A stretch of 64,000 nucleotides of DNA. It comes from Anaerolineales bacterium (lineage in GTDB: Bacteria > Chloroflexota > Anaerolineae > Anaerolineales > UBA11579). Below are positions 11,322-26,227 of the stretch, in pieces (the first letter of the stretch is position 1; each line of letters starts with the position of its first letter). The notes below the pieces were generated by a model. That model saw only the letters and a program-made list of their open reading frames with translations. It did no database searches and was not told the DNA's origin. The DNA lies in assembly GCA_040882365.1 (NCBI GenBank), contig JBBEBI010000041.1:16126-80125 (forward strand), given 5' to 3'. The position numbers were made by a program, and so were the translations under genes.

Positions 11322-11811
11322 GTAGGGGATCCCATTCCAATTGCACCTTGTGGCCTTGCACCCGCAGCGAGGGTCCGGGTTGGTCTTCTTTCAATAAGGT
11401 TAGGCCTTGCTCCAGGCAGGTGAGCTTGCAGATGTCGGCGATGTCTTCGGGATCGCCATTTAACTTATCGACGTGGACGCCGTTGTAACCAGCAGCCCGT
11501 ACCTGCACAAGCAGCTGCTGCACACGGCGCCGTGTTTTGCGATAAAGCTGCATGGAATGCTCGACGTAGTTGACTGTCAGGCGGGCGCGGCGGCTGATGC
11601 CCTGCGGGGTGATGATGTAGCGCAGCTTGCGGCGTTGGGCGCGCTTGACCTTCACATAGCCTTTGGCCACCAAGCGCTTCAAGTGCCAGTTAACCGTACC
11701 CACGGCCACTCCCAGTTGGGAGGCCAGGGAGGCCTGCGTAATATCGGGGTCGCTCTCGATCTGCTCCAAGAGCAGCATGTCGCGCGCGGTATCGGCTTTA
11801 GGGTCCGTCAT
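11311..11811 (-). CDS. Winged-helix regulator, EPS-associated MarR-like, with extra C-terminal domain of about 60 aa
   Basis: LLEQIESDPDITQASLASQLGVAVGTVNWHLKRLVAKGYVKVKRAQRRKLRYIITPQGISRRARLT fits the GxVNxxLKxLxxKGYVKV...KLxYxxTPxG pattern of EPS-locus MarR regulators. It is a paralogue of 51254..51712 and the first gene after a 50-bp gap. Confidence 0.6.
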   Translation of the reverse strand: MTDPKADTARDMLLLEQIESDPDITQASLASQLGVAVGTVNWHLKRLVAKGYVKVKRAQRRKLRYIITPQGISRRARLTVNYVEHSMQLYRKTRRRVQQLLVQVRAAGYNGVHVDKLNGDPEDIADICKLTCLEQGLTLLKEDQPGPSLRVQGHKVQLEWDPLREH

Positions 11812-11861: not shown

Positions 11862-13415
11862 CTATTCTTTGTGCATCCAATCCCAGAGCACGAACAGTAC
11901 TGCACTTAACAGCCCCAGGCCGATGACCTGATATAAATCCACGATAGGCCAGTCGAAATTCGTGTAGCGCCGTAGATACCAGGGGATGAACCAGGCTATC
12001 ATCAAAACGGCGCCTCCCATGGCCCGGCGTAACCAGGGGTCCCTTGTTTCGCGATACCACACCCAGGCCCAGGCGGCCAGGGCGATCTGGATGGCAGCAA
12101 AAGCGCTACGGTAACGCGGGCTATCCCAAAGGTCTCCCCCACCGCGATAGGAAGCGGTGAAACTCACCACCCAACTCGAGAGAAGCAACGCTCCGGGAAG
12201 GCGGTGCCATTCCTTTGAGCGCAAGGCCAAGAAAGTCGTATATAGCAGAAGGGCCAGAAGCAGGGTCCAGCCCACAGCCCGCCAAACGCCTATAGCAGTC
12301 CAAACCGTCGGCCCCGTGGCTACTACAGCTGCCGGTAATAGAGGGCGTAAGATCCCATAGGCAACCAGAAAAGGAATTTGCCCAAATAGCGGAAGGCGTT
12401 CGAACTGGCGCGCCACCCAACCCGAAGCGTTCTCGCTGACGTACGCTTGCCATCGGGCAGACTGGATCAACCAAAGGTTCTGCTCATCGGCGAGAAGAAT
12501 GAATCCGATCAGTATGACAAACGCAGCAGCAGCCAATCCGATCCAGACTTTGGGTGAGCGTAACCAGCGCCATTCGTCCAATGCCAACGCCGCCACGACC
12601 AACATAAAAATCAGCGAAGGCGTGAAAGCCCAGGTAAGCGGAATAGATAATAAGACCGGCGCCGCTAGCAATGCCAGTTTACCAATAGATCGCTTTTCAC
12701 GGAGGCGCAGAAGACCATACAGGGCAAGCGGCACCAAGAAAACGGTAAAGGCCTCGCGCATTTGCGAGGAACCCAGCAGCACGGCCTCAGGATACAGAGC
12801 CAATCCCCAGGCCGCTAAGTAGGCGACCTTCTCGCCCCATACACGCCGCGAAAAAGCCCAGGTGAAGGCGACCGCCAATCCCGAGACAGCCGCGGCCAGC
12901 GCGAGCACCAATAGCGGCTGATGCTCAGTACCGCCCAGATAGCGGTAGACAGCGGCGCTCAAGAACAGCAAACCCCCGTATTGATCGGTGGAACTAATTC
13001 CTTGAAATGAACTTAGCAGAGGTTGATCCGAGCGAGCAAGATTCCAGGCTGCCACGTCACGGTTATAGGCATCTTCCATCACATAGCCGGCCTGCTGCAC
13101 TGCAGTGTCATAGCCACCGGCGGGCAACGCAAATAACCACAGTGCGCCCATCGCGAGGCGAAGCAAAGCCGCGCCAATGGTTAACACCAGGAGCCATCTG
13201 GGTGGCCTTTCGCGGCGCAGAATCCGGCATGCGATCCAAAACAGCAGGGCGGCAAGAGCCAGTAGTGCCAGAAAGGACAGCCAGCTATTTACATTGGAAA
13301 AACGCGATGAAAACCAGGCTAAAAGAAATGCCAAGACTAATATTCCCCAACCAACCATGGCAATAAAGCTCCACGAATATTTTCTTGTTTTTGCGCGCGC
13401 TTTTCGTTTTGGCAT
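11862..13415 (-). CDS. Polytopic membrane protein, possible GT-C-type glycosyltransferase
   Basis: 517 aa with more than 10 hydrophobic spans. An early extracytoplasmic-loop acidic motif YVMEDAYNRDVAAWNLA resembles the DAxxxD loop motif of the two large paralogues below. An O-antigen polymerase/ligase-like role cannot be excluded. Confidence 0.35.
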   Translation of the reverse strand: MPKRKARAKTRKYSWSFIAMVGWGILVLAFLLAWFSSRFSNVNSWLSFLALLALAALLFWIACRILRRERPPRWLLVLTIGAALLRLAMGALWLFALPAGGYDTAVQQAGYVMEDAYNRDVAAWNLARSDQPLLSSFQGISSTDQYGGLLFLSAAVYRYLGGTEHQPLLVLALAAAVSGLAVAFTWAFSRRVWGEKVAYLAAWGLALYPEAVLLGSSQMREAFTVFLVPLALYGLLRLREKRSIGKLALLAAPVLLSIPLTWAFTPSLIFMLVVAALALDEWRWLRSPKVWIGLAAAAFVILIGFILLADEQNLWLIQSARWQAYVSENASGWVARQFERLPLFGQIPFLVAYGILRPLLPAAVVATGPTVWTAIGVWRAVGWTLLLALLLYTTFLALRSKEWHRLPGALLLSSWVVSFTASYRGGGDLWDSPRYRSAFAAIQIALAAWAWVWYRETRDPWLRRAMGGAVLMIAWFIPWYLRRYTNFDWPIVDLYQVIGLGLLSAVLFVLWDWMHKE

Positions 13416-13421: not shown

Positions 13422-16004
13422 CTAAGAGTCAGGAGCGGAACAGTTATCAAGTTTAGCGGATACCAGTAAAACTAGGGAGCCATCGGATTCCTTGACGATT
13501 ACGGCCGCAGCATCCAGGGTTTTGCCGCAATGAAAAACGTAAACATCCGAACTGGCGGGGAATTCCGCGTCTAGACTATCCAAGGGGAGGATAACCTCGC
13601 CCGGTTCCGGCCCTAGCAGGTAAAAAGTGAGGCGCGCGAAATCCATCGGCGAAACGAGGAGGAAATTTCTATCGGGTAAACCTTCATGCACGCGATAGTA
13701 ACGAGGGTGCAGGGCGCGGCCGCCAATTACATTTAGCCCGCCAGCCGTAAATAAATTAAGCACCCGTTGCTTATCCGTTGAATTCCCCAACGTGACGCGG
13801 GAGAGCGCATCGAGTACATGCTGCGATGATACCTTTGCGTAGCGCGGCACGTTTAGCGCTTCGATGATCGAAAACGAGGAACCTGCCATCAGGAGCAATA
13901 AAGCCGCGATAACAAGGGGCCAACGCCCAATGGATTGCGATTTGGGTTTTACTCGAGATTTCGGCTCAATGGGGACCAGCTTGGCAAGGAATTGTTTTAC
14001 TCGTGGGAGATTATGGAATAACAACAGGATCCAAATTACCAATTGCCCCAGCCCTAGGGTGTAATACAGGAGCACAGACCAATCCATGGGCAGGTTGTAC
14101 CGCCAGCCCGATACCCGGGCCAGCGCCAAATTGATTGTGAAGCCCAGACTGATGAACAGGGGCACCAATCCGACCCAGCCCACCTTCTTCCAAGCCACCG
14201 CCAGGCCGATCGCCACCAAAAGCAAGTTTGCAGCCATTGGTAAAACCGTTTCTCCCGGCAAATCCCCTTCCCAGCCGGGCCAAAAGGGTAATTCACGAAC
14301 ATGGGATTCCAGGTCTCTCAACTGCAGTGAAAGGGGCATCGCCATGAAGTTGAGCATCTGATTGCGCACGTAATTATCGGCCACAAAGCCGGCCACATAA
14401 CCCGGGTTCTGCAAGGTGAACTCGCGCACCCGCCCCATCTGGCGCGCGTAATACTCGCCCTCGCTCTCGCCAGGCAGGAAGGGGAGCACATAAGTGCCGG
14501 GCGTGAAGCTGTAGCGATTGGCCAGGAACCCGGACACCACCGCGTCTTCGATGGCCCATTGGCCTATGAGGGCGCGGTTGCGCAGGATCCAAGGACTGGC
14601 AACGAGAAGAACCCCCAACACAAACAAGGCGGCTGGCCGCCATGCCAGTCGCCAACCCCAAACCAAAACAACCAATAGCAAAACGAAGGGGATAAGAGTC
14701 AGGCTTTGCGAGCGCAACAGGATGGACCAGCCCAGCAGGCCCCCAACCAACAACGCTGCCATCCAGTTGCGGGGCGAACTCCGCAGCCAGCTTACGACTG
14801 CCAGCGCTAACGCGGCCATTAACATCGCCGTGGGCAAATCGGCCATCAACAGTCTTGCGTGCGAGGTATTGATCACATTCCCGAGGACAATTGAGTTCGC
14901 TTCGCGCAGAATGACGATTCCCGCTAACAATAAACCGGAAAAACGATTGTGGAGCTTCGCGCCGAGCAAATAGAGAAATGCAGGAAATAGCGCCAGGCCG
15001 AGCACTTGGCCGATAACCACCCCGTCGTAATCGCCTCCCAAAAATCCTTCCAGCCCTGCCAGGAAAAGCACGTAGGCCGGGCGCCGAATAGCCACCTGAT
15101 CACCAAAACGAAAACCTTCACCGATGAGCACGTTGTTGGCGATCGCATCGTGATTGAAGGCATCCGAGAGTGGGAAACTCTGATAGTTCGGTGCCACTGG
15201 TGGTGAACTGTAATACGTGGAAGGCGCTGGTTGCATAAGCCAAATGCCTGCAGCGATGAGCCACACCATGCCCGCCAGGATCAGGTCAAGCCGCTGCTCC
15301 AGAAACCTTCCCTTTCGCCACCGTCGCCAAATGGCAATTGCCACCAAGAGGATCAGCGCTGCGATCAACAAACACAGAAGCACTTGACTGCTCAGGATCG
15401 GCGTCCCGGGAGCATTCCAAACAGTGGCATCGAACCCCAGACCGAGGCCGGTCAGCGCAACCAGCACAACAAATAAGATGAGAAACGTGAAAACGAAAAG
15501 CCCTAACCGTAATTTTTCTTTTTCTTGGTCAAGTCCCCGCGTGTTAATTCCATAACGCATAACCAAAAACGTGGGCAACCAAAAAAGGGATACCACAATT
15601 CCATAAAAAAATAGGGGGCGAATTCGAATGATGTATAACGAGATCGAACCAAAGAGGCTAACTGCTCGCGCTTGAGGCAGGAAGAACAGGGCCCAGCAAA
15701 AAACCAGAACTGCGCAAACAAGCAACAATGAAAACCAGAACCGGCTTGTGGAGCGCAAAAATGAACTTAGCCGATCAATTGCATTCTTTATCCATTTCCC
15801 TCGGGTTACGCTGATAACTGCGAAACTAAAAATGAGTGCGAGGGCGAACAGTAATAAGGCCAGAAGGATACGCTCAAGTGAATAGCCAAGAACAACAGCC
15901 CTGGAAGCTTCGCTTGGCTCGGCCAGCGACCAGGCAAAACAAAACCAACCGACCAGCGCAGAGACGGTCATGCTGACGCGCAGGGCTATTCGTTTTGCCG
16001 GCAT
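13422..16004 (-). CDS. Large polytopic GT-C-like (PMT_2/ArnT-like) glycosyltransferase candidate with C-terminal soluble domain
   Basis: 860 aa. An N-terminal multi-TM module of about 270 aa is followed by the loop motif FPLSDAFNHDAIANNVLIGEGF, more TM spans, and a C-terminal non-membrane domain (GRALHPRYY...FARLTFYLLGPEPGEVILPLD...). Clear paralogue of 21547..24180. Confidence 0.5.
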   Translation of the reverse strand: MPAKRIALRVSMTVSALVGWFCFAWSLAEPSEASRAVVLGYSLERILLALLLFALALIFSFAVISVTRGKWIKNAIDRLSSFLRSTSRFWFSLLLVCAVLVFCWALFFLPQARAVSLFGSISLYIIRIRPLFFYGIVVSLFWLPTFLVMRYGINTRGLDQEKEKLRLGLFVFTFLILFVVLVALTGLGLGFDATVWNAPGTPILSSQVLLCLLIAALILLVAIAIWRRWRKGRFLEQRLDLILAGMVWLIAAGIWLMQPAPSTYYSSPPVAPNYQSFPLSDAFNHDAIANNVLIGEGFRFGDQVAIRRPAYVLFLAGLEGFLGGDYDGVVIGQVLGLALFPAFLYLLGAKLHNRFSGLLLAGIVILREANSIVLGNVINTSHARLLMADLPTAMLMAALALAVVSWLRSSPRNWMAALLVGGLLGWSILLRSQSLTLIPFVLLLVVLVWGWRLAWRPAALFVLGVLLVASPWILRNRALIGQWAIEDAVVSGFLANRYSFTPGTYVLPFLPGESEGEYYARQMGRVREFTLQNPGYVAGFVADNYVRNQMLNFMAMPLSLQLRDLESHVRELPFWPGWEGDLPGETVLPMAANLLLVAIGLAVAWKKVGWVGLVPLFISLGFTINLALARVSGWRYNLPMDWSVLLYYTLGLGQLVIWILLLFHNLPRVKQFLAKLVPIEPKSRVKPKSQSIGRWPLVIAALLLLMAGSSFSIIEALNVPRYAKVSSQHVLDALSRVTLGNSTDKQRVLNLFTAGGLNVIGGRALHPRYYRVHEGLPDRNFLLVSPMDFARLTFYLLGPEPGEVILPLDSLDAEFPASSDVYVFHCGKTLDAAAVIVKESDGSLVLLVSAKLDNCSAPDS

Positions 16005-16020: not shown

Positions 16021-17442
16021 TTAGTCTACAATCTTGTAATCGGCTACCCGTCTTTCCAGGGCACGCCAGATGTCGGGGGGCGCCTCCCCGGCCGCCAAGT
16101 GCTCGGCGATGAAACGGCCCATGTCGGCGCAATGGTCTGAGTTGTTGTAGTTATACATCCCGATGCGGCCCGTGGTCAGCAAATTAGGTACTTGTCGTAA
16201 TTTATCGCTAACCAGTTTCATCTTATCCGCATAAGCCAAATCGTAACGCGGGTAGAAATTCTTTCTCCGAATCACAAAGCTGCCCAGTACTTCTTCACGG
16301 CTTATCAATCCCGTTTGAACCAACCCGGCGACTACACGTTCAGTCAAATCCGCATCGCTGGCCAGCCACAGTTCGCTGCCTTCCGCGGCGGTGAAATCTG
16401 CCGTGATCACCGTGCGGTCCGCAGGTCCCAGCTCTGGATTCATTTGCTTTTGCTCAAACAGGCGGCTGAACACCACATTGCGTTGAGGAAAGAAGATCCA
16501 TTGATCCGCGAAGACCAGGGGGCGCTTGATTTGTATGTAAGCCAAGATGAGATGGCGGAACTGCAGCCCATCCACCGCCTGGTTGAATTCGGCATCCACC
16601 TCGCCAAACACCATGCGCCCTATAACAGGAAGGGGAAGGGAAGAGACCAGGTAGTCGCATTCGAATTGCCTAAGCTGGCCTTGATGGTTCGCTGTAACAC
16701 TGGCAACTTTGCCCGCCTTCATTTTCAAGCCTTTTACATCGACTGAAGTGAGCACTTCCCCGCCGTGGGCGCGGATGCCTTCCGCCAGCGCCTGCGGCCA
16801 ATCCCCAAAACCGGCGCGGGGGTAATAGAAGAACTCGGCATTTGTATCCGCAGTTTCCTTCTTCAACCCCAGCAACTTCAGGATGAGTTCCAAGCCGCCC
16901 GAAGCCGGAAGGCGCGTACGCGCCATTTCGGGATGCAAGCTTGCCGGGTCGCCCCATACCTTATCTGCCAGAGGTTCGAAGACCAATTCGTAGGTCGGGC
17001 GACCGAACCGGCGGATGATGTATTCCTCGTAGGAACGCGGTGCGCGGCGATCCAACAGGCCTTTGACGAGTTCTACCCCATAACCCAGGCCGAGGCTCAG
17101 GAATCGGGCTGGGCCGAGCACTATTGCCAGGTTGCCAAGCTTCAATGGGTAATCTACCAAATGACCCTCGATGTACAGCCGGTTCTTTTTTGGTAGTTTG
17201 AGCAACCGGTCGCCCATCAAGCTAGTGACTTCGTCGAGGACGCCGGGGATGACGGAATACAGCTTGTGGGCGCCGTAATCCAGCACAAAGCCGTCGCGCT
17301 CAAAGCTGGCGCAAAGCCCGCCGATGACGGATTCCTTCTCGAGAACCGTCACCTGGTATTTGCCTGTTCGGGCGAGGAAGTAACCGGCGGCCAGCCCTCC
17401 CACTCCGGCGCCGAGGATGACGATCTTGTCTTTACTTGCCAA
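16021..17442 (-). CDS. FAD/NAD(P)-binding oxidoreductase (amine-oxidase / UDP-galactopyranose-mutase-like fold)
   Basis: N-terminal KIVILGAGVGGLAAGYFLAR...VTVLEKESVIGGLCASFERDGFVLDYGAHKL (GxGxxG plus the GG motif). TTG start at 17442 is preceded by GGAG. Confidence 0.7.
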   Translation of the reverse strand: MASKDKIVILGAGVGGLAAGYFLARTGKYQVTVLEKESVIGGLCASFERDGFVLDYGAHKLYSVIPGVLDEVTSLMGDRLLKLPKKNRLYIEGHLVDYPLKLGNLAIVLGPARFLSLGLGYGVELVKGLLDRRAPRSYEEYIIRRFGRPTYELVFEPLADKVWGDPASLHPEMARTRLPASGGLELILKLLGLKKETADTNAEFFYYPRAGFGDWPQALAEGIRAHGGEVLTSVDVKGLKMKAGKVASVTANHQGQLRQFECDYLVSSLPLPVIGRMVFGEVDAEFNQAVDGLQFRHLILAYIQIKRPLVFADQWIFFPQRNVVFSRLFEQKQMNPELGPADRTVITADFTAAEGSELWLASDADLTERVVAGLVQTGLISREEVLGSFVIRRKNFYPRYDLAYADKMKLVSDKLRQVPNLLTTGRIGMYNYNNSDHCADMGRFIAEHLAAGEAPPDIWRALERRVADYKIVD

Positions 17443-17509: not shown

Positions 17510-18439
17510 TTACTGCTTTTCGGCGATGACCAACACCTGTCCCATCCAATAAGGGATCTGCAGATAAGTTAATCCCAGGCGTTTTACCAGCCATCCTGCG
17601 GCCTTGGCGACCGGCTTCAGGTAAGCCTCCATGCGGAAGAGGATGTAGCCTAGCTCTAAGGTTTGCCAATGGCGGCGGGTTTGCACTACCCGGAAACCTA
17701 ATTCCCCCAGCATGCGCGCCAGGGTTGGGCGCGTAAAGTAATAAAGGTGTACGGAAAGTAAAAACACCCAGCGGCGCCCCATTAGGCGGGCGACAAAGGA
17801 GCGAATGTCCGGGTAATTGACCACCAATAACCCACCCGGCTTAAGCGCGCGGGCGCATTCGCCCAACGTGGCTTTGGGATCAGGCGTATGCTCCAGCACG
17901 TCCCAAAGGGTGACCACATCGAAAGAAGCCGAAGACAGCTTCATATCGAAAATGGTCCCAGGAACGATGTGTAGGCCGTAATTCCGATTGCCCCATTCAC
18001 ACAGCCAGCGGTTGGGCTCGCAGCCGGCCATCTCCCAACCAGTTTTCTGCGCCACCGAAAGGAAGGAGCCGCCCGCCGTTCCTACATCCAGCAGGCGGCC
18101 GCGCTGCGGTCGAAAGTGTTCGATGATCTTCAGCGCCTTGGCAAAGGTGCGCTCGCGCCCGGCCGCCTGCGAAACGAACAACTCATCGCTGCCAGCGCTG
18201 TAACCCTCTAAGACGACATCACTGCGCAGGCGGGGGTTGAGGTACATCAGCCCGCAGCGTTCGCAGCGGACCAGCTGATCCAAAAGAACTTCATCGCCTG
18301 AGGAGCGGAAGGTGTTAGTGATCTCCTCCGGTTTGGCCTCTTCGTAGCGCGGCGGATAAATGACCTCATAATCATCCGTCCCACATAAATTGCATGGGAC
18401 GGATTCGAGGAGGGTTTGATATTGTTGGGCCTTTGTCAT
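17510..18439 (-). CDS. Class I SAM-dependent methyltransferase with N-terminal zinc ribbon
   Basis: CNLCGTDDY...CERCGLMYLNPR (two CxxC pairs) followed by motif I LLDVGTAGGSFL and VVTLWDVLEHT. Paralogue of 47444..48376. Confidence 0.8.
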   Translation of the reverse strand: MTKAQQYQTLLESVPCNLCGTDDYEVIYPPRYEEAKPEEITNTFRSSGDEVLLDQLVRCERCGLMYLNPRLRSDVVLEGYSAGSDELFVSQAAGRERTFAKALKIIEHFRPQRGRLLDVGTAGGSFLSVAQKTGWEMAGCEPNRWLCEWGNRNYGLHIVPGTIFDMKLSSASFDVVTLWDVLEHTPDPKATLGECARALKPGGLLVVNYPDIRSFVARLMGRRWVFLLSVHLYYFTRPTLARMLGELGFRVVQTRRHWQTLELGYILFRMEAYLKPVAKAAGWLVKRLGLTYLQIPYWMGQVLVIAEKQ

Positions 18440-19377
18440 TGATTGCGGCTGCGGCGAAGGAAATTTTTGACTTCCTGAAAGCGAGTATTGATCGCATTGA
18501 GGGAAAGGCCGATGCCCAGGGCAATCAGACCGGTAGGAAGGCTAAAGAGTATGATGCCACCCAAGATGCTGTTGGGCAAGCCTTCCTGACCAAATAGATT
18601 CATCAACCGCAATACACCAGCAACGGCAGCCATCAGCCAGAAAACCACCGCCACGGCGCCGAACACGCGCAGCGGGCGGTGGTCGCGCAGCAAGATTGCG
18701 GCGGTCAACATGATGCGATACCCATCGGCAAAGGGGCGCAATTTGGAATGGCTATCCTCCGGGCGGCTGCGGTAACGGATCGGCACCTCCACGACGCGCA
18801 ATCCCTCGGCCAGCGCTTGCAAAGTGATTTCGGTTTCCACCTCAAAGCCAGAGGTAAGCACTGGCACGCTCTCTACGAAACGGCGATTTACGGCGCGGTA
18901 GCCGGAAAGCACATCGCGGAATTTGGTACCGAAGAGCCGATTGATGTAGCTGACGATCATGCGGTTGCCAAACTGGTTCATGCGTTTCATGTTGGCGTCC
19001 GACGCGGCCGCCAGGCGCTCCCCAACCACCATATCAGCCTCGCCCGCCAACACGGGCGCGATCAGCGCGTGGATGTCGTCCGCAAAATAGGTGTCATCCC
19101 CGTCCACAACGACGATCACATCTTCTCTCAGCTCATCGAAGATGGCGCGTAAGACATTTCCTTTCCCCAGGGCCGCCACCCGGCGCACCTCCGCGCCGGC
19201 ATTGCTTGCCAGTTCCGTGCTCGCGTCGGTGGAGGCATTGTCGAATACGTATATGGCGGCATCGGGAAGCGCCTTGTGAAAACCCTGCACCACACCCGTG
19301 ATCGTAGTCGCCTCGTTATGGCAAGGAATGGCGACTGCCAATTGTTGTTTGCGGGAGAAAATCCTGCGCGGGGCCAT
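18436..19377 (-). CDS. GT2 polyprenyl-phosphate glycosyltransferase (GtrB/ArnC/DPM1-like)
   Basis: LAVAIPCHNEATTI...YVFDNASTDAS...VVVDGDDTY (DxD). Two C-terminal TM helices (VFGAVAVVFWLMAAVAGVL; ILGGIILFSLPTGLIALGIGLSL) give the GtrB/ArnC architecture. The start is moved to ATG 19377 (MAPRRIF...), directly after the upstream stop at 19380-19382. The track start at 19458 would overlap that gene by 79 nt. Confidence 0.8.
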   Translation of the reverse strand: MAPRRIFSRKQQLAVAIPCHNEATTITGVVQGFHKALPDAAIYVFDNASTDASTELASNAGAEVRRVAALGKGNVLRAIFDELREDVIVVVDGDDTYFADDIHALIAPVLAGEADMVVGERLAAASDANMKRMNQFGNRMIVSYINRLFGTKFRDVLSGYRAVNRRFVESVPVLTSGFEVETEITLQALAEGLRVVEVPIRYRSRPEDSHSKLRPFADGYRIMLTAAILLRDHRPLRVFGAVAVVFWLMAAVAGVLRLMNLFGQEGLPNSILGGIILFSLPTGLIALGIGLSLNAINTRFQEVKNFLRRSRNQ

Positions 19378-19379: not shown

Positions 19380-20009
19380 CTAAGCCTTCCTGAGCAGCAT
19401 CCATTGATTCATGCCCATTGAGAATTCCTGATATTGCTCGACCGACAATCCGGCACAATCGGCCAGAGCCTTCAGGCCTGTTTGTGTAAGGTACAGCTTA
19501 TGGTCTTTGATCTCCTGACGATCGAAAATTCCAAGGCGCGCCAACTTCTTCAATACAAAATGGCCTTGCGGAGCCGGCGTGGTCAGGCCGGCCAAACCGT
19601 CCTTGCGTAAACACTTTGCGATCAAATCAAAATGCGCCTGCGGATCAAGGAGATGCTCGATGACGGCCAGGGAGAGAACTCCATCATAGGTTACTTTTGG
19701 TATCCACGTAGTGAGGTCCGCTTCGATGAGGTCAAATCCGTGGGTTTCGCTGGTAACCGATAAATCCACTCCAGTGAACTCGACTCCAGGATAGCCTTGG
19801 CTTAAGGCAGCCAAATTGCGTCCCCAAAATCCGCACCCCAATTCGAGGCACTGGAGTTCCTTGCCCGGGTTCTCGGAAACCAACAGGTCGAGAAACGAAC
19901 GAGCCCGAAACAAGCGGCGGCGGATGGCGAAATCTTCCAGGCCACGGAAGGTACGCTGCTGACCGTATGAATGAGACCGCTTTGCAGTGGAAATCTGTTT
20001 GGCCATCAT
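19380..20009 (-). CDS. Small class I SAM-dependent methyltransferase
   Basis: Motif I CLELGCGFWGRN, then YDGVLSLAVIEHL. ATGA overlap (20006-20009) with the radical SAM gene. Confidence 0.7.
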   Translation of the reverse strand: MMAKQISTAKRSHSYGQQRTFRGLEDFAIRRRLFRARSFLDLLVSENPGKELQCLELGCGFWGRNLAALSQGYPGVEFTGVDLSVTSETHGFDLIEADLTTWIPKVTYDGVLSLAVIEHLLDPQAHFDLIAKCLRKDGLAGLTTPAPQGHFVLKKLARLGIFDRQEIKDHKLYLTQTGLKALADCAGLSVEQYQEFSMGMNQWMLLRKA

Positions 20010-21490
20010 CTACTTAGCCAGCGCAACATCAACGCCCGATAGGGCACCATTTCCATCTTGGTTTCAAAGCGGCGCCTCAGAAAATTCCAGGGCTGACGCA
20101 GCAATTTGAAAGGATGATAACGCAATTTCCACCACAGGAAATGGGCGTATAGGCGCACACGATAACGATTAAGGCGGGCATAGTCGGCGCGCCAGGTGGG
20201 GCTGAAGTTCAATTCTGAGAGCGTCGTATAACCCGAGAACTGCTCATGGATCGACGAACCGGGCACCGGAGTAATGACAAACAGCGCAATCTCATCTACG
20301 CCCACGCGGGTAAGGTCCCGCGCAAGATCCCAGGTCGTTTGCAGATCCTCATCCGTTTCACCCGGATATCCGAGAACAAAGCAGGCCTGCGAGCGGATGC
20401 CCACCTGGTTCATGCGCTTGACCAACCGGACCGCATGCTCAAGGTTGAACGGCTTGCGCATCAGTTTCAGCAGGCGCGGTGAGCCCGTCTCCGGAGAGAT
20501 AGAAATATAGCGGCACCCCGCCTTGGCCATCAGGTCGATGGTTTCCTCGTCGCGCATGGTTTCCACTTTTGTGCCCGCCGCGATCTTCCAGGTCACCTTC
20601 AACCGGCGACAGATGAGCTCGTTGCACATCTCGCGAATGCGTCGATCGGAAATTGTGGGATCCAAATCTTCGATGTGGAATTCGTGCACATGCAGCGTCT
20701 TAGCAAAATGCTCGATCTCGGCGACCACGTTGCCAGCGGAACGCGGGCGCCACTTCTGGTTGTTGGTGGCTGGGACTACGCAGAAGCCGCACGGGTAGGG
20801 GCAGCCGCGCGAGGTCAGCAGTGGCAGATAGCGGCGCGCCGATACGGGCCCGTGGGCGAAGCGCAAAGACCAGTAATTATCGAGGGGGAATAGATCCCAG
20901 GCTGGGAAGGGCAACGCGTTAAGTTCCTCTTCAGAAAGATATCCGTTTGGAGGGCTGTAGAACTTAGACGAACCCAGCCCGTCGATCCCACGTAGAGTTT
21001 CCTCGGGCGCCGAGGGATTCAGCGCTCCCAGCAACCGGATCGCCCTACGCTCAGACTCGCCGGTAAGAATGAAATCGGCGCCTGCCGCGTAGAATTCCGC
21101 TGCCACGTGGGAGAGCGCATAGGCGGTCACCGCTTGGGTGTTCTCCACCACGATCACCGGCACCTGGGGGAGCGCCTGCTTTATGGCGCGGACGATCGAC
21201 ACCGTGGAAATATGGTTGGTCAGGTTTATGGCGTAGACAAAAACCGCGATGACCTCTTTGGGCAATTGCTCGACGATCTGCGCCTCGGCGAGACCGAAGA
21301 ACTGGAATTTGCCTTCCGCACGGTTCCGGCGCGGGGCCGCTGCATAAGCGTCGATCACCTGAACTAGGTAACCGCCCTGCCTCAGCGCGGCCGCCAGGTA
21401 AGCAAGACTGATGGGCATGTACACGATCCCGGTCGTGAACGGGTCGCTACGCTGCACAACGAGATTGGGATTGATCAGGGCAATGGACAT
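20006..21490 (-). CDS. Cobalamin-binding radical SAM enzyme (class B, methylase-like)
   Basis: The N-terminal region of about 150 aa has a B12-binding-domain layout (IALINPN...PISLAYLAAALRQGGYLVQVIDAY...PVIVVENTQ...). The radical SAM cluster motif is LLTSRGCPYPCGFCVVP (CxxxCxxC), followed by ISISPETGS and FVLGYPGETDED. Confidence 0.85.
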   Translation of the reverse strand: MSIALINPNLVVQRSDPFTTGIVYMPISLAYLAAALRQGGYLVQVIDAYAAAPRRNRAEGKFQFFGLAEAQIVEQLPKEVIAVFVYAINLTNHISTVSIVRAIKQALPQVPVIVVENTQAVTAYALSHVAAEFYAAGADFILTGESERRAIRLLGALNPSAPEETLRGIDGLGSSKFYSPPNGYLSEEELNALPFPAWDLFPLDNYWSLRFAHGPVSARRYLPLLTSRGCPYPCGFCVVPATNNQKWRPRSAGNVVAEIEHFAKTLHVHEFHIEDLDPTISDRRIREMCNELICRRLKVTWKIAAGTKVETMRDEETIDLMAKAGCRYISISPETGSPRLLKLMRKPFNLEHAVRLVKRMNQVGIRSQACFVLGYPGETDEDLQTTWDLARDLTRVGVDEIALFVITPVPGSSIHEQFSGYTTLSELNFSPTWRADYARLNRYRVRLYAHFLWWKLRYHPFKLLRQPWNFLRRRFETKMEMVPYRALMLRWLSR

Positions 21491-21514
21491 AACAAGAACG
21501 CCTCATACGAGGCG
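21491..21514 (-). promoter_or_regulatory. Hairpin immediately 5' of the radical SAM start codon (SD-sequestering or terminator-like)
   Basis: Minus strand: CGCCTC-GTAT-GAGGCG followed by TTCTTGTT-ATG. The only GAGG near the start lies in the 3' arm of the stem. A TATAAT hexamer lies 10 nt upstream of the hairpin. Confidence 0.3.
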
Positions 21515-21546
21515 CGGGAGAGAATTATACCTAGTACGAGATACGA

Positions 21547-24180
21547 CTATTGAGGCGCACAAATGAACGCATCGGAGTCGTCCGCCAGTAAGTCGTGCCC
21601 GCCGTCATCGAGAAAGACAACCGCGGCCGCCCGAAAGTAAGTGCTTTCTGAACAACCCAGTACCAGCACGTTTACCGCGTTCGGAAAATACCCGGGCGGG
21701 GCTTCGAGTGGCAGGGCCACTTGATCATTCTCTGGACCAACGACCCAAAAAGCCATCCTTGAGAAGGGCAATGGATTGTATGCCGATTCGCCTCCCGACT
21801 CCCCAATCCCGGCGGGATAGAAACGCGGGTAAAGGGCGCGCCCCCATAGGGCTTTCGCTCCTCCTTGCCGCAAGAAGCCTTGCAGGTCCAAGCCGGTTAG
21901 CTGGGCCAACTCGGAATCCTCCCATTGAGCTTGGGCAGTGGCCGCATCCAAATCGAGGAAGCGGGCGGGCAACACAAGCTCTGACAAGGGGAGCAGCAGG
22001 CCGGCCAGCAGGATAGCGGCGGCCCAGCGCGGCAGCTTCTGTTGGCGCCAGGAAGGCGCTTTTTGCTGCCTGGCAGCCTTACCCTTAGCCAGCCTCGACC
22101 CAAAAAAGTAAGCCCAGAGCCACAAAGTGAGCTGCGCCAAACCCGCACAGTAGAACAAGATCAGCACCCAATCTACGGGAAGAATCAAGCGCCAACCGGA
22201 TACGCGGGCTACAGCCGTGCTTAGGTTGTAGAAGACATGTATTCCAATTGGCACCAGGGTTAGCCAGCCGGCTTTCTTCCACACAGCCCCAACGCCGATA
22301 GCGACCAGTGTCAGGTTGAACACCAGGGGCAGCCAGGCTTCACTTGGGAAGGTGCCATCCCAGGTTTGCCAATAAGGCGTCTCGCCGATATAGGTGTCCA
22401 GCGAGCAGCATTCGCTCCACAGGCGATCCTCAGCACCCAGCCAATAGGGCCGCAGGTTATAGAACGTGACGATCTTGTCGGCTAGATCGAAACGCACGGG
22501 CAAGGCCAGCAAGGAAGACACTTCATTGTGGAAGAAGTGAGCGGTGACAAAGGTCGCGACTTCTCCGGGATGTGTGAATGTGAATTGGGCCACTTTGGAA
22601 AAACCGAGCGATACATAATCAGCAACCGCCGTGCCCTCGGGGAATCCGGGGTCGGCCAATTCGGGCGTGAGGCTATATTGCTTGGCCAGGTACAAAGCCT
22701 GCAAGGGCTGCGAATATCCAAATTGACCCGTGTATTGATAGTTTCTCCACATCCATGGGAGCGCCGCAAGCAGGAACCCCAGCAAGAGAAGCCCTGCATA
22801 CGCCAGCCTGCGCACAGTTCTTCCCGCCTGCCAAAGAGCCAGAAACAAGGCGATTGGCAGAAAGATTATCGTTTGCGAACGAAGCAGCATCAGCAATCCC
22901 AGGGCGCCGCCTACCCAAAGCGGCCAGTGCAGGACGCGCCGATCTGATTGCAGCCAGCAAAGGACGAGCAGGGTGAACAGCGCAATGCCCAGCGCGGCCG
23001 GCAGATCCGTCATCAACAATTTTGAATGAGAGACATTGATGTCTCCGGAAAGGGCGATCGCATTCTGCTCACGGAAAATCATAGCCAGCGCTAGCAGAAA
23101 CCCCGTCAGGCGGTGATGCAGGAAGCTCGCCAAGGAAAAGAGAACTGCGGGAAAAAGAGCTAGTACCATGATTTGGGCCGCAATTACATTCAAATAGTTC
23201 TGGCCTACCAGCGCGTGGAGCACACCCAGGAAGAAGCTGTAGAGCGGCTTCTCGATGACGTCGTTAAAGCCTTCGCCGACCAAGAGGCTCTGCGCAGAAA
23301 GATCGTGAGTGGCGGCATCCGAGTGTGGGTAATACTCGAAATTCGGCGGGCGGGGAGTTGGGGAAAAGAAAGTGGGAGTGAGCGTTTGCGTTTGCCACGT
23401 CCAGATAGCAAAAACCCACAAGACCAGCGCGGCCAGCAAGTCAATGCGGGAAAGCCGCCAGCCAAACCTTTTCTCAATGAAACGCAAGACAAAATAAAGC
23501 AGACCCGCGCCCAACCATGCCAGCAAGACTTGCGTGGCTAGCAGGGGAACTCCCGGGGTGTCCCAGCCGGCGCGGTCGGGAACCAGCCCGAATCGGGTAC
23601 CCCACATGAAGACGGCGATGACAGCGATAGCGCCCAAAGCAGCGACAGTCGGAAGCCAGGCTTTGAAATCAAATGTGGAACGCTTGGGTCTGCGAAGCAA
23701 AGGGGCACAGATTAATATTTGAATGCTGAACAAGAAAAGCCACATCAGAGCAGGAAATAGCCGAAGCAGCCAGGCGCGTACGAAATTGTCGGTGAACTTG
23801 AAGGTGAGGAAACATAAATATAAAGAAAGGACGGAAAAAAATAAAGCAGCACCAATAATGGCTGCATAGACGACCGGATTATTTACCGCGGCCAGGATTT
23901 TCCTTTCAATGGATGGCAAGGCCTTGTGTCTTTTCCATCTCAACCAGAACAGAAGGGCAAACAGTACAGCGATAGCTAATAACCCTACTACTAGTAGCCA
24001 TCTGGTTGGTGAAAGGCCCAGCAGCCAGGCTGACGCGCCTTCGCTGGGCGCGCCGAAAACGAGGGTTATCGCCCCCAGTGCTTCCAGCGCCGGCAGCAGC
24101 AAAAAGAGCCCCAGCAACCTGGCCGTGCCTTTTTGCTCTCTGCGAGATTCTAGGTTACGGGCAGTCAAAGCTGCGCTCAA
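21547..24180 (-). CDS. Large polytopic GT-C-like glycosyltransferase candidate, paralogue of 13422..16004
   Basis: 877 aa with the same tripartite layout. Loop motif YPHSDAATHDLSAQSLLVGEGF. C-terminal domain GRALYPRFY...FSRMAFWVVGPENDQVALPLE... aligns by eye with the 860-aa protein. Confidence 0.5.
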   Translation of the reverse strand: MSAALTARNLESRREQKGTARLLGLFLLLPALEALGAITLVFGAPSEGASAWLLGLSPTRWLLVVGLLAIAVLFALLFWLRWKRHKALPSIERKILAAVNNPVVYAAIIGAALFFSVLSLYLCFLTFKFTDNFVRAWLLRLFPALMWLFLFSIQILICAPLLRRPKRSTFDFKAWLPTVAALGAIAVIAVFMWGTRFGLVPDRAGWDTPGVPLLATQVLLAWLGAGLLYFVLRFIEKRFGWRLSRIDLLAALVLWVFAIWTWQTQTLTPTFFSPTPRPPNFEYYPHSDAATHDLSAQSLLVGEGFNDVIEKPLYSFFLGVLHALVGQNYLNVIAAQIMVLALFPAVLFSLASFLHHRLTGFLLALAMIFREQNAIALSGDINVSHSKLLMTDLPAALGIALFTLLVLCWLQSDRRVLHWPLWVGGALGLLMLLRSQTIIFLPIALFLALWQAGRTVRRLAYAGLLLLGFLLAALPWMWRNYQYTGQFGYSQPLQALYLAKQYSLTPELADPGFPEGTAVADYVSLGFSKVAQFTFTHPGEVATFVTAHFFHNEVSSLLALPVRFDLADKIVTFYNLRPYWLGAEDRLWSECCSLDTYIGETPYWQTWDGTFPSEAWLPLVFNLTLVAIGVGAVWKKAGWLTLVPIGIHVFYNLSTAVARVSGWRLILPVDWVLILFYCAGLAQLTLWLWAYFFGSRLAKGKAARQQKAPSWRQQKLPRWAAAILLAGLLLPLSELVLPARFLDLDAATAQAQWEDSELAQLTGLDLQGFLRQGGAKALWGRALYPRFYPAGIGESGGESAYNPLPFSRMAFWVVGPENDQVALPLEAPPGYFPNAVNVLVLGCSESTYFRAAAVVFLDDGGHDLLADDSDAFICAPQ

Positions 24181-26227
24181 TAGGCATGAATAGTTCTATC
24201 GCCGCGTCCTTGTAATCGGCCACCGATTCATAATACGCCAACAGCGGGGTTGTTACCCAAGTAACCCAGGCATTGTTTTCTTCATTCAGACTGTCCCCAA
24301 CGCTTTCGATGTCGGGCTCTTTATACAAAATAGCCTCGCGCTCAGACACGATGAGCGAAAAGCGGCCGGAAGCCAGGTCGGAACGGACCTCCTCAAAAAA
24401 AAGTTCGTTGCCCGCCAAGGCCTGATCCATAACATATTTTTTTTCGTAATCAACAACCAACGGCACGTCACCCACCAGCCCAAAGGTAATGAGCTGGCGC
24501 TGATCCATAAAAAGGACCTCGCCATATTGGCGTGCGCAGGCTACATAGTCCTGAATGCGGCCGAGGACAAATTCGGTGCGCTCCTGAGACGGCCGCTCAA
24601 GCGGCTTGCCCGCCACCATTGGCATGAAAGCCGGAATGATGACAATGATTGCAAGTAGCCAGCGCACAGTCACCGCGCTTTTTTGCAGCCTAGAGAGATT
24701 GGGTGCCAGCCCTCCTTCCCAGGCCATCGCGGCCACCAGCACTAGGCCCACCAGGAACATGTCCATGTTATGCAAGTCTGTGCCTCCGCCCACCTTGACG
24801 CTGGCGATAACGCCTACGACCAGGAGGGACCCCAAGCCCAGCACGGTCACAATACGCTGCCACTGCACTGTCTTCCATAGCTTTTCCTTCGCCAAGTAAA
24901 TAAGCAAAACGATCAAGGGCAGCGTGGCAAGGGCAAGGCCTAGCAGGATGCCTGGGGGATAGATCGAATTGGGAAGCAAACGTTCCCAGAGGAAGGGCTG
25001 CTGGGTGGAAACGGCCTGCAAACCCTGCAGGGTTTCCACGGACGGGGTCGCAGGAACAGGGGCAGCATCACCTGCCACCAGGAAGGGGAAAAAGCCCACG
25101 ACGATACCAACAAGGATGGGCAGCCCTTTGCTCCAGATTCCAGCCAGCCCAAGGGCCAAGGCGCTGAGCCAATCGCGCCAAACTAATCTGCCCCGCTCAA
25201 GGACGGCGTCTCCGAAAGCCAACAAGACAACCCAAATGCCAGCCGCAAATCTCCAGCTGTAGCGGCTGAGGCCCGCGTAATGGCCGGCGATGTAGGCCAA
25301 CGGCAAGGCTAGCCAGATGGGTTTGCGCCGCGCCACCGCCACTAGCATCGCCGCCAGCACCAGCGGCGAGTAGACGGGCCCCTGGTTTAGGAAAATGAGT
25401 GCCCACAGGCCAGCCAGCAGCCACTGATTTCGCCACCTGATCCCCGGCCAGAACGCGGCCCACCCCAACACCGCATAAGGCACGGTCACCAGGATGGCGC
25501 CCCACAGGCGAACAGCCCAGATGGGAACATGCGGAATGAGAAAAGGGAGACCCCACAGCGTTTGCCGACCGGGATCGATCCAGGCAAATATGGGCTCTTC
25601 TCCGGAAATGTTGTAACGCTCGCTGCCAAAAGCGATTGAATAGTCCCAAAGGCGATTCCCTTCGGACCAGTGCAGAGCAAACGGATAATCGCTAACCAAA
25701 ACGAATGATTCGGCCAATACCAATATTGCTCCCAGCACAAGGCCAGCCACCAGGAACGTTGGCCACTCAACAATTTCCTTTTTGGAGGTGGTAAGCAAAA
25801 AGGCACTAACAATCAACACAAGGCTGAATAGAAAAAGACGGAAAAACAATCCAGTGAAGAGCCCGCCCCAAGAGGAGTAAAACACAAACCAGGCCAGGAA
25901 CAATAGTACGAGAAGTATTAGGGGCCAGCGCCAACCACCAAGGTTTCGCCGCCAAGCCAACAAGCGATTTTCCAACACTTTCCAGCCTGGCAGGTAGAGC
26001 CAGGCGAATACCAAGGACAACAATCCGGCGAAAAATAGATAGAAGGCCAGTAAGGCAGCTGCCCATTTTATTGATAATCTCCCCAACCAGGAGCCAGACC
26101 CCCAGCCGAGGGAAAATAGCTCAATCCCGGCCAGAATTAACAAAAGGGCAACCGCGGCAAGCAAAATTGCCCGCTGATAGGGTGGCATCGCAGCCGGTCG
26201 ATTAGGGACGGAGTTCTTATGCGCCAT
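24155..26227 (-). CDS. Polytopic membrane protein with C-terminal soluble domain (function unknown, possibly glycan transferase/polymerase)
   Basis: 690 aa, with more than 12 hydrophobic spans and a C-terminal non-membrane region of about 170 aa (EVLFMDQRQLITFGLVGDVPLVVDYEKKYV...). 26-nt overlap with the downstream 877-aa gene. Confidence 0.35.
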   Translation of the reverse strand: MAHKNSVPNRPAAMPPYQRAILLAAVALLLILAGIELFSLGWGSGSWLGRLSIKWAAALLAFYLFFAGLLSLVFAWLYLPGWKVLENRLLAWRRNLGGWRWPLILLVLLFLAWFVFYSSWGGLFTGLFFRLFLFSLVLIVSAFLLTTSKKEIVEWPTFLVAGLVLGAILVLAESFVLVSDYPFALHWSEGNRLWDYSIAFGSERYNISGEEPIFAWIDPGRQTLWGLPFLIPHVPIWAVRLWGAILVTVPYAVLGWAAFWPGIRWRNQWLLAGLWALIFLNQGPVYSPLVLAAMLVAVARRKPIWLALPLAYIAGHYAGLSRYSWRFAAGIWVVLLAFGDAVLERGRLVWRDWLSALALGLAGIWSKGLPILVGIVVGFFPFLVAGDAAPVPATPSVETLQGLQAVSTQQPFLWERLLPNSIYPPGILLGLALATLPLIVLLIYLAKEKLWKTVQWQRIVTVLGLGSLLVVGVIASVKVGGGTDLHNMDMFLVGLVLVAAMAWEGGLAPNLSRLQKSAVTVRWLLAIIVIIPAFMPMVAGKPLERPSQERTEFVLGRIQDYVACARQYGEVLFMDQRQLITFGLVGDVPLVVDYEKKYVMDQALAGNELFFEEVRSDLASGRFSLIVSEREAILYKEPDIESVGDSLNEENNAWVTWVTTPLLAYYESVADYKDAAIELFMPIERSFDCP

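Follow-up and report, generated by a model that had tools for sequence, protein, structure and literature searches.

The DNA considered here (the window) is a 64,000-nucleotide stretch of an Anaerolineales genome, and the subject is a minus-strand gene at 20006..21490 encoding a radical S-adenosylmethionine (SAM) enzyme, called rSAM below. It lies in a surface-glycan locus and is followed by genes for a small methyltransferase, a GT2 glycosyltransferase, a second methyltransferase (MT309), and a flavoprotein resembling UDP-galactopyranose mutase (UGM). rSAM truly belongs to the radical SAM enzymes, has the two-domain build of class B, and is part of a tight orthologous family. It is co-inherited with MT309, and in the Anaerolineales lineage also with the GT2, the UGM-like flavoprotein and GT-C enzymes in a Wzm/Wzt locus. 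We tentatively propose, at somewhat less than an even chance, that rSAM supplies the radical chemistry in a conserved cassette that tailors a sugar for extracytoplasmic glycan decoration, for which we infer the substrate, the order of the steps and the lipid-linked state. The cassette genes and the parts of rSAM are as follows.

20006..21490, minus strand: rSAM enzyme, 494 amino acids (aa), Rossmann domain plus TIM barrel in the class B layout; its orthologous family is uncharacterized
20936..21490, minus strand: N-terminal Rossmann-like (B12-binding-type) domain of rSAM, residues ~1-185, delimited from AlphaFold2 (AF2) secondary structure, conservation and N-domain matches to hidden Markov models (HMMs)
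20780..20803, minus strand: CxxxCxxC motif of the [4Fe-4S]/SAM cluster (C230, C234, C237), present in 80 of 80 orthologues
20231..20833, minus strand: partial TIM-barrel core, residues ~220-420, delimited from the Pfam match, PDB alignments and conservation; invariant SPETGS (E334), C326 and C370
20009..20182, minus strand: C-terminal helical tail, residues 437-494, helical in the model; 15 K/R, 2 D/E and 13 F/W/Y in 58 aa
19380..20009, minus strand: small class I SAM methyltransferase, 209 aa (Pfam Methyltransf_23/11), in ATGA overlap with rSAM
18436..19377, minus strand: GT2 resembling polyprenyl-phosphate hexose synthases, 313 aa (NCBIfam AglJ; PDB 5mlz), with two C-terminal transmembrane (TM)-like segments
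17510..18439, minus strand: MT309 methyltransferase, 309 aa, of a ~310-aa family (Pfam Methyltransf_23, 99.5 bits), with a four-Cys zinc ribbon
16021..17442, minus strand: FAD flavoprotein, 473 aa, UGM-like (Pfam Amino_oxidase, NAD_binding_8 and GLF; NCBIfam PRK07208, 263 of 389 bits)

The Radical SAM Enzyme and its Family

The list of open reading frames (ORFs) and the translation place rSAM at exactly this span, with an ATG start. The segment SRGCPYPCGFCVV of the translation carries the three cluster cysteines, and Pfam Radical_SAM (PF04055) matches residues 226-388 at 79.1 bits, far above its cutoff of 29.5. The SPETGS segment aligns with the matching segments of AprD4, TsrM, and MgmA. The AF2 model has a pLDDT of 88.9 and a pTM of 0.90, and Foldseek matches it over its full length to AprD4, TsrM, MgmA/QCMT, OxsB, CysS, and TokK, at query-normalized TM-scores (TMq) of 0.60-0.68. 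Homologues number over 2,000, and the 120 best are at least 66% identical and mostly from Anaerolineales; because of these, and of full-length orthologues at 45-86% identity, rSAM is not a chance ORF.

The original prediction had described a 494-aa ORF with a CxxxCxxC motif, embedded in a surface-glycan locus and ATGA-coupled to a small methyltransferase that precedes a polyprenyl-phosphate-type GT2. All of this is borne out. The ATGA junction can be read directly in the sequence (rSAM ends with TGA at 20008-20006, and the methyltransferase starts with ATG at 20009-20007), the GT2 resembles AglJ and the dolichyl-phosphate-mannose (Dol-P-Man) synthase, and the locus contains Wzm/Wzt, GT2 and GT4 glycosyltransferases, sugar-nucleotide enzymes, and NeuB.

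In the C-terminal tail, R444, Y448, F451, K455, Q466, F475, T477, K478, and E480 are kept among orthologues. Judging by its cationic and aromatic composition, the tail is a possible element for docking at the membrane surface or for binding a phosphate-bearing substrate. Just upstream of the gene, a 56-nt spacer (21491-21546, minus strand) separates it from that of an 877-aa membrane protein. This spacer holds a TATAAT hexamer (GGTATAATTC), which could be an internal promoter of the rSAM-methyltransferase-GT2-MT309 block.

A Cassette Conserved Across Bacteria and Archaea

A scan of one genome per species yielded 80 further loci, and the gene neighborhoods of 83 loci were analyzed both by BLAST with the window's neighbors and by unbiased de novo clustering of all neighboring ORFs. 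The rSAM orthologues in the further loci are 45-86% identical, and their carriers belong to Chloroflexota, Planctomycetota, Bdellovibrionota (with the isolate Fluviispira multicolorata among them), Omnitrophota, Elusimicrobiota, Lentisphaerota, Acidobacteriota, Magnetococcales, Nitrospinota, SAR324, Desulfobacterota, Patescibacteria, Woese- and Aenigmarchaeota, and Methanocellaceae.

The constant partner is MT309. It is found by BLAST in 70 of the 83 loci (38-89% identity) and by clustering in 60, where it lies on the rSAM strand in all cases but one (59/60); many of the loci without it are truncated contigs. A GT2 orthologue is immediately adjacent to rSAM in 43 loci, and the FAD protein occurs in 43-48, both on the same strand. 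The small methyltransferase is found in only 8 of the 83 loci, directly adjacent in 5, and in Anaerolineales only: it is a lineage-specific insertion. This rules it out as a general functional partner of rSAM, and the emphasis initially placed on it belongs with MT309.

The type A cassette has the order rSAM-GT2-MT309-FAD, with MT309-FAD-rSAM in archaea. In type B, rSAM-MT309 precedes a HAD hydrolase, a nucleotidyltransferase of the IspD/MobA kind, a fusion protein (CofD::GT2), and then a small GT2; its carriers are Bdellovibrionota, Magnetococcales, SAR324, Nitrospina, and Elusimicrobia. Machinery for lipid-linked sugars is common to both types. In the Fluviispira locus, a PMT_2 GT-C lies directly upstream of rSAM, and a polyprenyl-phosphate sugar-phosphate transferase lies downstream. 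A large multi-pass membrane protein is found directly upstream in all Anaerolineales loci with enough upstream sequence. By a crude TM count over all loci, which under-counts and missed one Pfam-confirmed GT-C, 52 of 81 loci have such a protein within 7 kb, and 24 of 70 have one directly upstream. A universal adjacent GT-C is thus not upheld, and the association is better described as frequent. It had been expected that such chemistry would be unusual for a structural envelope glycan; the cassette is indeed uncharacterized, but it is widespread across bacterial and archaeal phyla.

Individual loci show further features. An additional rSAM-SPASM protein of 394 aa stands beside the cassette in two of them (L044:8808-9992 and L029; cluster C19), and a second, divergent class B-type rSAM paralogue lies within 7 kb in four (L051, L056, L083, and L044). 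In the complete 2.24-Mb Anaerolineales genome CP075526.1 (L001:1-3298), the cassette is not part of a large glycan locus, and genes of the mevalonate pathway (HMG-CoA reductase, HMG-CoA synthase, and thiolase) lie about 7 kb away. That proximity is possibly coincidental, though the pathway supplies isoprenoid carriers. In one Chloroflexota lineage (L002:13610-15253), two genes separate rSAM from the rest of the cassette: one, on the opposite strand, encodes a 666-aa membrane protein, and the other a 547-aa member of the sulfatase superfamily, which is a possible phospho-substituent transferase. Finally, the library of representative proteins includes very long ones (1,500-2,300 aa; P0164, P0167, P0179, P0181, P0195, P0209, and P0226) in which rSAM is matched separately three or four times at 27-29% identity; they appear to be tandem multi-rSAM fusions.

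MT309, the Constant Partner

The zinc ribbon of MT309, with its invariant cysteines C16, C19, C59, and C62, is followed by a class I SAM domain and by an extension at the C terminus that is also conserved. Pfam recognizes generic methyltransferase domains only. The best Foldseek matches of its AF2 model (pLDDT 88.5) are MtmC, KijD1, and TcaB9, over ~314-328 columns at TMq 0.57-0.62, as against ~220-250 columns and TMq 0.43-0.50 for generic methyltransferases. Profile searches match MtmC (15-256) and TcaB9 (59-273), and among the matches listed, only profile alignments of the MtmC/KijD1/TcaB9 type reach both the zinc ribbon and approximately position 273. A TcaB9 match also pairs alignment positions 10-108 with residues 173-269 of the chain.

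These three NDP-sugar C-3-methyltransferases share with MT309 the N-terminal four-Cys zinc ribbon and the class I SAM domain. They differ in length, as TcaB9-type enzymes have ~416 aa and MT309 lacks their ~100-aa C-terminal part. Identity is 15-16%, the target-normalized TM-score is 0.45-0.48, and the alignments stop near residue 269 of 416. Being ~100 residues shorter, MT309 resembles the TcaB9-type family but is not a member. From these structural matches, MT309 is the putative sugar-methyltransferase partner of rSAM.

Predicted Machinery for a Lipid-Linked Sugar

The longest ORF of the GT2 overlaps the small methyltransferase by 79 nt. Judging from orthologue N-termini, the real start is most likely ATG 19377, 2 nt past the methyltransferase stop, and the GT2 stop overlaps the MT309 start by 4 nt. 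NCBIfam matches are to AglJ (220 of 325 bits), to the dolichyl-phosphate hexose transferase model, and to PpgS, and the sole solved relative is Dol-P-Man synthase 5mlz. Because of this likeness and of the two C-terminal TM-like segments (234-252 and 269-287), the GT2 bears the signature of a polyprenyl-phosphate sugar synthase and is predicted to be the membrane-anchored synthase of a three-component glycan-decoration system.

The FAD protein aligns with eukaryote-type UGMs over residues 5-449 (PDB 4dsg, E 4.6e-12; also 3ute), and on these alignments the most fitting reading is an enzyme akin to sugar pyranose/furanose mutases. A carotenoid/phytoene-desaturase or HpnE-type identity was ruled out, as such matches cover the N-terminal dinucleotide-binding region only.

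Large membrane proteins flank the cassette on both sides, and an exporter is encoded further downstream.

21547..24180, minus strand: 877-aa membrane protein, 14 TM-like segments, GT-C candidate (weak Pfam PMT_2 match, E 2e-4), directly upstream of rSAM
24155..26227, minus strand: 690-aa membrane protein, 12 TM segments by TM count, no Pfam match
13422..16004, minus strand: 860-aa membrane protein, 16 TM segments, GT-C candidate, paralogue of the 877-aa protein
11862..13415, minus strand: 517-aa PMT_2-family GT-C glycosyltransferase, 10 TM-like segments (Pfam PMT_2, 26.9 vs. 26.1 bits)
8464-9318, minus strand: Wzm, ABC-2 permease
7174-8457, minus strand: Wzt, ABC ATPase carrying a carbohydrate-binding domain (Wzt_C)

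The conserved upstream neighbor in Anaerolineales loci is of the 877-aa type, and the 860-aa paralogue is 33-37% identical to the upstream membrane protein of related loci. The weak to borderline PMT_2 (ArnT/PMT-type) matches and the 10-16 TM-like segments predict that the 877-, 860-, and 517-aa proteins are GT-C enzymes that use lipid-linked donors. The 690-aa protein could be a flippase or a further GT-C. Wzm/Wzt exports the polysaccharide probably decorated by the cassette, and the C-terminal carbohydrate-binding domain of Wzt implies a capped chain terminus.

A Proposed Pathway

GtrB-like GT2 enzymes make polyprenyl-phosphate sugars, and GT-C enzymes decorate glycans extracytoplasmically, also in ABC-transporter-dependent pathways; DprE1/E2 is a precedent for tailoring of the lipid-linked sugar (PMC11127046). 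The known three-component systems (GtrA/GtrB/GtrC, the C. youngae pentofuranose system, mycobacterial DPA/Emb/Aft, and ArnC/ArnT) share with our cassette a GT2 with C-terminal TM segments and a GT-C, and here a GT2 and a PMT_2-like GT-C lie inside an ABC-transporter-dependent glycan locus. ArnD performs another tailoring step on a lipid-linked sugar. An rSAM, a zinc-ribbon methyltransferase, and a UGM-like flavoprotein are all absent from these systems, whereas all three are present in the window cassette. The cassette also has three to four large GT-C-like proteins in place of one, and no GtrA/MATE-type flippase is recognized.

The pathway that we propose would begin with the flavoprotein, which may turn a nucleotide sugar into the furanose. 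The GT2 would then load the hexose onto polyprenyl phosphate. Next, the 5'-deoxyadenosyl radical of rSAM would take a hydrogen from an unactivated carbon of the sugar, and a methyl group from a protein-bound corrinoid would most probably then be installed, as in GenK and GenD1. MT309 would add a further methyl group. After flipping, the GT-C enzymes would pass the tailored sugar to the exported glycan outside the membrane, the decorated glycan presumably being the polysaccharide exported by Wzm/Wzt.

GenK and GenD1 are class B radical SAM enzymes that C-methylate sugars. They share the sugar-tailoring context of rSAM, but they belong to antibiotic clusters, whereas rSAM lies in a cell-envelope glycan locus with polyprenyl-phosphate machinery. 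Corrinoid-mediated C-methylation of this kind by rSAM, with MT309 adding a further methyl, is the most likely outcome, although we would put it at rather under one chance in two. A C-methylated sugar, one of the two products originally suggested, becomes more plausible because the conserved partner MT309 folds closest to sugar C-3-methyltransferases. The idea of sugar tailoring is in fact strengthened by MT309, the GT2 and the GT-C context, but methylation by rSAM itself is unproven. The other suggested product, a modified lipid carrier, finds no precedent: polyprenyl, dolichol, and undecaprenyl are absent from a 2026 review of lipid-modifying radical SAM enzymes. In the papers that we searched there is no description of the cassette or of an rSAM in polyprenyl-phosphate/GT-C decoration, and no B12-type radical SAM enzyme in O-antigen, capsule, S-layer, or polyprenyl contexts.

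The N-Terminal Domain and the Cobalamin Question

The cobalamin domain of class 1 cobalamin (Cbl)-dependent radical SAM enzymes is a five-stranded Rossmann fold with a β-hairpin after strand 5 (PMC13331322). The AF2 model of rSAM has the same construction, with five strands alternating with helices (β1 2-7, β2 42-47, β3 80-87, β4 112-116, and β5 140-142) and a small hairpin of short strands at ~172-178 after β5. The class 1 enzymes TokK, TsrM, OxsB, MgmA/QCMT, and CysS also have the same domain order (Rossmann-like domain, CxxxCxxC TIM barrel, and C-terminal helices). Their likeness to rSAM extends to full-length Foldseek matches (TMq 0.60-0.63), a long, His-free β1-α1 loop, and a Gly-Glu motif at α5; identity is below 20%. 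In the rSAM family, this loop is conserved, with N9, D16, G21, Y24, and P26 in it.

Homology can be traced as well. At E<=0.01, the Pfam B12-binding family PF02310 is matched by 42 of 47 orthologues, the best at 5e-8. When only the N-terminal 200 aa of five diverse orthologues from bacteria and archaea are searched, Sden_1168 is matched at E 1e-7 to 4.5e-17, and some of these searches also match HpnR, BchE, or a ladderane-type model; the AprD4 model is missing from all five match lists. By these sequence comparisons, the N domain is homologous to B12-type radical SAM domains. Its profile has no significant match in the PDB, so that no solved cobalamin domain is found by sequence, and full-length rSAM profiles align there over the radical SAM core only.

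Three cobalamin-contact features known from OxsB, TsrM, and TokK (PMC9204698) were checked in the 80 orthologues and in 54 neighboring class B proteins. One is a Gly-Glu motif at the start of α5, which hydrogen-bonds the cobalamin tail (PMC9204698). It is present in the family (G144 in 78 of 80 orthologues, E145 in 70), directly before helix 146-156. Another, the "downstream" motif of the β3-α3 loop, supplies the residue under the cobalt and is remodeled in this family. After β3, the orthologues have A87-x-N89-x-T91-x-H93 (A87 in 79 and H93 in 78 of the 80), with the same spacing as A70-x-S72-x-Y74-x-W76 in TokK, the register being one that we infer. W76 is the TokK residue closest to cobalt, and the W76H variant is reported to be still active (PMC9204698). 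The candidate under-cobalt residue is thus a His here, as against Trp, Arg, or Asn in class 1 enzymes.

A set of results weighs against the pathway proposed above, and against its corrinoid-dependent step in particular. The third contact feature is a Gly-Gly on β4 that forms the pocket for the base (DMB, dimethylbenzimidazole) and ribose in MetH, OxsB, TsrM, and TokK (PMC9204698). In the rSAM family it is absent, with no Gly at positions 114-116 in any of the 80 orthologues and Gly at position 113 in only 3, whereas neighboring class B families retain it at ~99%. Where those relatives have Gly-Gly, E116-N117 is invariant (80/80) and Q119 nearly so, in a segment reading E116-N117-T-Q119; helix 4 also has an insertion of ~7 residues relative to neighboring families. 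On the window rSAM, PF02310 stays below its gathering score (22.7 vs. 32.1 bits; E 9e-5), and its match, residues 24-114, ends just where the Gly-Gly motif should start. Turning to relatives, rSAM approaches no NCBIfam curated cutoff (best 148 of 575 bits), and among solved structures both sequence (E 4e-18) and fold (E 2e-20, TMq 0.68) point to the non-methylating AprD4 as the closest. Its nearest non-orthologous neighbors, found at 27-33% identity in a 50%-identity library of 1.8 billion proteins, are uncharacterized, and no sequence features distinguish methylating from non-methylating class B enzymes (PMC12931638). As for the cassette, no GtrA, SMR, or MATE flippase family occurs among the Pfam matches of the neighbors, and MT309 alone could account for any C-methyl group.

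AprD4 and ArsL fall in the same similarity network, and although they contain domains related to the Rossmann fold, neither binds cobalamin (PMC12931638); homology and fold therefore leave cobalamin binding by rSAM unproven. The first description of this gene had called the enzyme cobalamin-dependent, with a B12-binding-type N domain. The domain type stands as far as homology and AF2 fold are concerned, though not by the Pfam gathering score. Dependence on cobalamin is not established, given the sub-cutoff PF02310 score, the missing Gly-Gly, and the AprD4/ArsL precedent. In our reading, the sequence suggests a cobalamin-type domain minus one hallmark of base-off binding, in which the corrinoid has been lost or is bound unusually, and we see roughly even odds that rSAM binds one. 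If it does, the mode would be unusual, without a Gly-Gly pocket and with His93 at the position of TokK Trp76 under the cobalt.

The organism does import corrinoids, as judged from a cobalamin riboswitch and a BtuF-like ABC operon adjoining the glycan locus, divergent from the first gene of its minus-strand run. The riboswitch (RF00174, 52785-52916, plus strand) is full-length and scores 57.5 against 31.5 bits (E 1e-11). It precedes genes for a BtuF-type periplasmic binding protein (52804-54015, plus strand), whose likely true start is an ATG near 53039 preceded by AGGAG, and for an ABC ATPase (54602-55834, plus strand). As a pointer to corrinoid use by rSAM, this operon is weak context. Between the two genes, ~590 nt (54016-54601, plus strand) contain no ORF of at least 100 aa, and the ATPase domain begins only at residue 173 of its ORF; a permease gene in this region may be frame-shifted or mis-delimited.

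Characterized Relatives and Rival Chemistries

Against NCBIfam cutoffs, rSAM scores 148 of 575 bits with the Sden_1168 P-methyltransferase model, 112 of 750 with ApyD, 110 of 481 with the BchE cyclase, 108 of 578 with HpnJ, 91 of 600 with PhpK, 75 of 500 with AprD4 (NF033070), and 43 of 650 with HpnR. It is also below the curated cutoffs of the BzaD, KedN5, TsrM-type, and MgmA models. The family cannot be anchored through its nearest neighbors either: their best match to any curated family (E 5.5e-90) is far short of membership, and they too fall far under every curated cutoff. B12-type radical SAM enzymes fall into over 100 sequence groups, most of them without an assigned function, and in the similarity network each group with a characterized member contains C-methyltransferases (PMC12931638), which favors methylation by rSAM. 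A non-methylating closest relative had been named in advance as grounds for doubt, and this has come about by half, since AprD4 is the closest solved enzyme but the closest curated HMM is that of a P-methyltransferase family.

AprD4 (PDB 6FD2, 457 aa) is like rSAM in length, in fold (TMq 0.68, target-normalized TM-score 0.74), in its two-domain layout, and in having a sugar substrate. It is a 1,2-diol dehydratase that is cobalamin-free and non-methylating, and it differs in acting on a free pseudodisaccharide in aminoglycoside biosynthesis. The likeness suggests another chemistry, in which a cobalamin-independent radical dehydratase or oxidase of the AprD4/DesII type would take a hydrogen from the sugar and then remove water, or oxidize it, to give a keto (deoxy) sugar, the Rossmann-like N domain binding substrate instead of a corrinoid, and a TcaB9-like MT309 would C-methylate that sugar beside its keto group by enolate chemistry. 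TcaB9-type sugar C-3-methyltransferases need a keto-sugar substrate. The keto sugar from rSAM would feed MT309, which would explain why the two genes travel together, and the near-universal pairing (70/83) and closest folds of MT309 are in accord with this, as are the loss of Gly-Gly, the sub-threshold PF02310 score, and the cobalamin-free AprD4 and ArsL of the B12-type network (PMC12931638). But the AprD4 model aligns over core residues 189-416 only (188-416 for the PDB similarity), it leaves the N domain outside the alignment, and 75 of 500 bits fall short of AprD4-family membership. The N domain matches cobalamin-dependent families instead, and the Gly-Glu motif and the TokK-like A...H spacing are kept. 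In addition, clustering of neighbors in the 83 loci reveals no dedicated ketoreductase conserved in the cassette, and MT309 is without the ~100-aa C-terminal part of TcaB9-type enzymes. On balance, we regard this dehydratase or oxidase chemistry, the main rival, as rather unlikely.

The HpnJ match leads to a different idea. HpnJ, acting on bacteriohopanetetrol (BHT)-glucosamine, and Cds, acting on the glucose headgroup of archaeal tetraether lipids, are proposed to carry out radical rearrangements of a hexose, after a glycosyltransferase (HpnI in the case of HpnJ) has loaded it on the lipid (PMC13459092). By analogy, rSAM might rearrange the lipid-linked hexose after loading by the GT2, through ring contraction or formation of a carbocycle, with methylation and transfer to follow. 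OxsB catalyzes the radical rearrangement of a nucleotide. It is among the full-length fold matches of rSAM, just as HpnJ is among the best NCBIfam matches; the GT2 gene adjoins rSAM in 43 loci, and the cationic-aromatic tail is compatible with a membrane surface. The HpnJ match, however, is limited to the core and to 108 of 578 bits, and in HpnI/HpnJ and Cds the end product is a membrane lipid, as opposed to a transient polyprenyl-phosphate carrier here. No hopanoid or tetraether genes accompany the rSAM cassette. The cassette already has a UGM-like enzyme that could handle a change of ring size, and a carbocycle cannot be a glycosyl donor, so that such a rearrangement fits poorly with the flanking GT-C enzymes. 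We hold it to be highly improbable.

The substrate might also not be a sugar at all. The best curated HMM is that of a P-methyltransferase family, even for the N domain alone, and in type B loci the CofD-like phosphotransferase, the IspD/MobA-like nucleotidyltransferase, and the HAD enzyme suggest phospho-linked substituents. Lipid-modifying class B enzymes exist too. One could thus envisage methylation or cyclization of the polyprenyl chain (HpnP/HpnR/Grs-like), P-methylation (Sden_1168/PhpK-like), or modification of a protein or peptide, but a non-sugar substrate of any of these kinds is scarcely probable. Among the window genes scanned there is no PEP mutase or other phosphonate gene, which tells against the phosphonate/P-methylation reading of the best HMM. 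There is likewise no precursor peptide or other context around rSAM for a peptide of ribosomal origin that is modified after translation (RiPP). No radical SAM enzyme is known for polyprenyl or dolichyl carriers, the 2026 review does not speak of these carriers, all HMM scores are far under their cutoffs, and MT309 resembles sugar methyltransferases.

The Surrounding Glycan Locus

The rSAM gene lies within a nearly unbroken minus-strand gene run of ~52 kb. This run encodes Wzm/Wzt and a second ABC exporter, many GT2 and GT4 glycosyltransferases, epimerases and dehydratases for sugar nucleotides, an aminotransferase, a NeuB/CMP-sugar branch, and no fewer than six other methyltransferases. It is this content of exporter, glycosyltransferase, and sugar-nucleotide genes that makes "embedded in a surface-glycan locus" the correct description. 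The second exporter is a fused ABC_membrane+ABC_tran protein of the MsbA/PglK type (628 aa, 44844-46730, minus strand). Genes for a NeuB-family synthase, a UDP-GlcNAc 2-epimerase, and a CMP-sugar synthetase (CTP_transf_3) lie at 1730-2794, 41825-42928, and 46737-47447, all on the minus strand, and on their account the locus includes a branch for nonulosonic acids of the sialic, pseudaminic, or legionaminic type. Two small winged-helix regulators of the MarR/HTH_24 type are encoded within the locus as well (11311-11811 and 51254-51712, both minus strand), and a related 163-aa protein is found downstream of the cassette in seven related loci (cluster C14, e.g., L022:15024-15515).

Concluding Remarks

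With so many unstudied groups, one more uncharacterized class B-type enzyme would be no surprise. What goes beyond the routine in this cassette is the pairing of rSAM with MT309 across domains of life, the lipid-linked glycan setting, and the systematic loss of Gly-Gly from a cobalamin-like domain. The boldest version of our proposal would make rSAM the first radical SAM enzyme to act on a polyprenyl-phosphate-linked sugar donor in a three-component glycosylation system, producing a C-branched sugar by means of a corrinoid held in a way new to radical SAM enzymes, without a Gly-Gly pocket and with the β3-α3 loop His under, or ligating, the cobalt. We think this combination decidedly unlikely; if it were true, uncultivated bacteria and DPANN archaea would widely have a C-branched (methylated) sugar in their envelopes that has so far gone unseen.

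Among the mostly unstudied groups of B12-type radical SAM enzymes, this family stands out for a genetic context that is clear and conserved to an unusual degree, so that its function can be approached by experiment, and Fluviispira multicolorata, a cultured carrier of the cassette, opens the way to genetics. The loss of Gly-Gly is in itself a natural test of which features predict cobalamin binding, an annotation problem already posed by AprD4 and ArsL. If the proposed pathway is right, radical chemistry would join extracytoplasmic glycan decoration, whose repertoire has so far consisted of lipid-linked donors and GT-C enzymes with tailoring of the epimerase or deformylase type. A new tailored sugar would then be predicted in the envelopes of Chloroflexota, Planctomycetota, Bdellovibrionota, Omnitrophota, DPANN archaea, and others.

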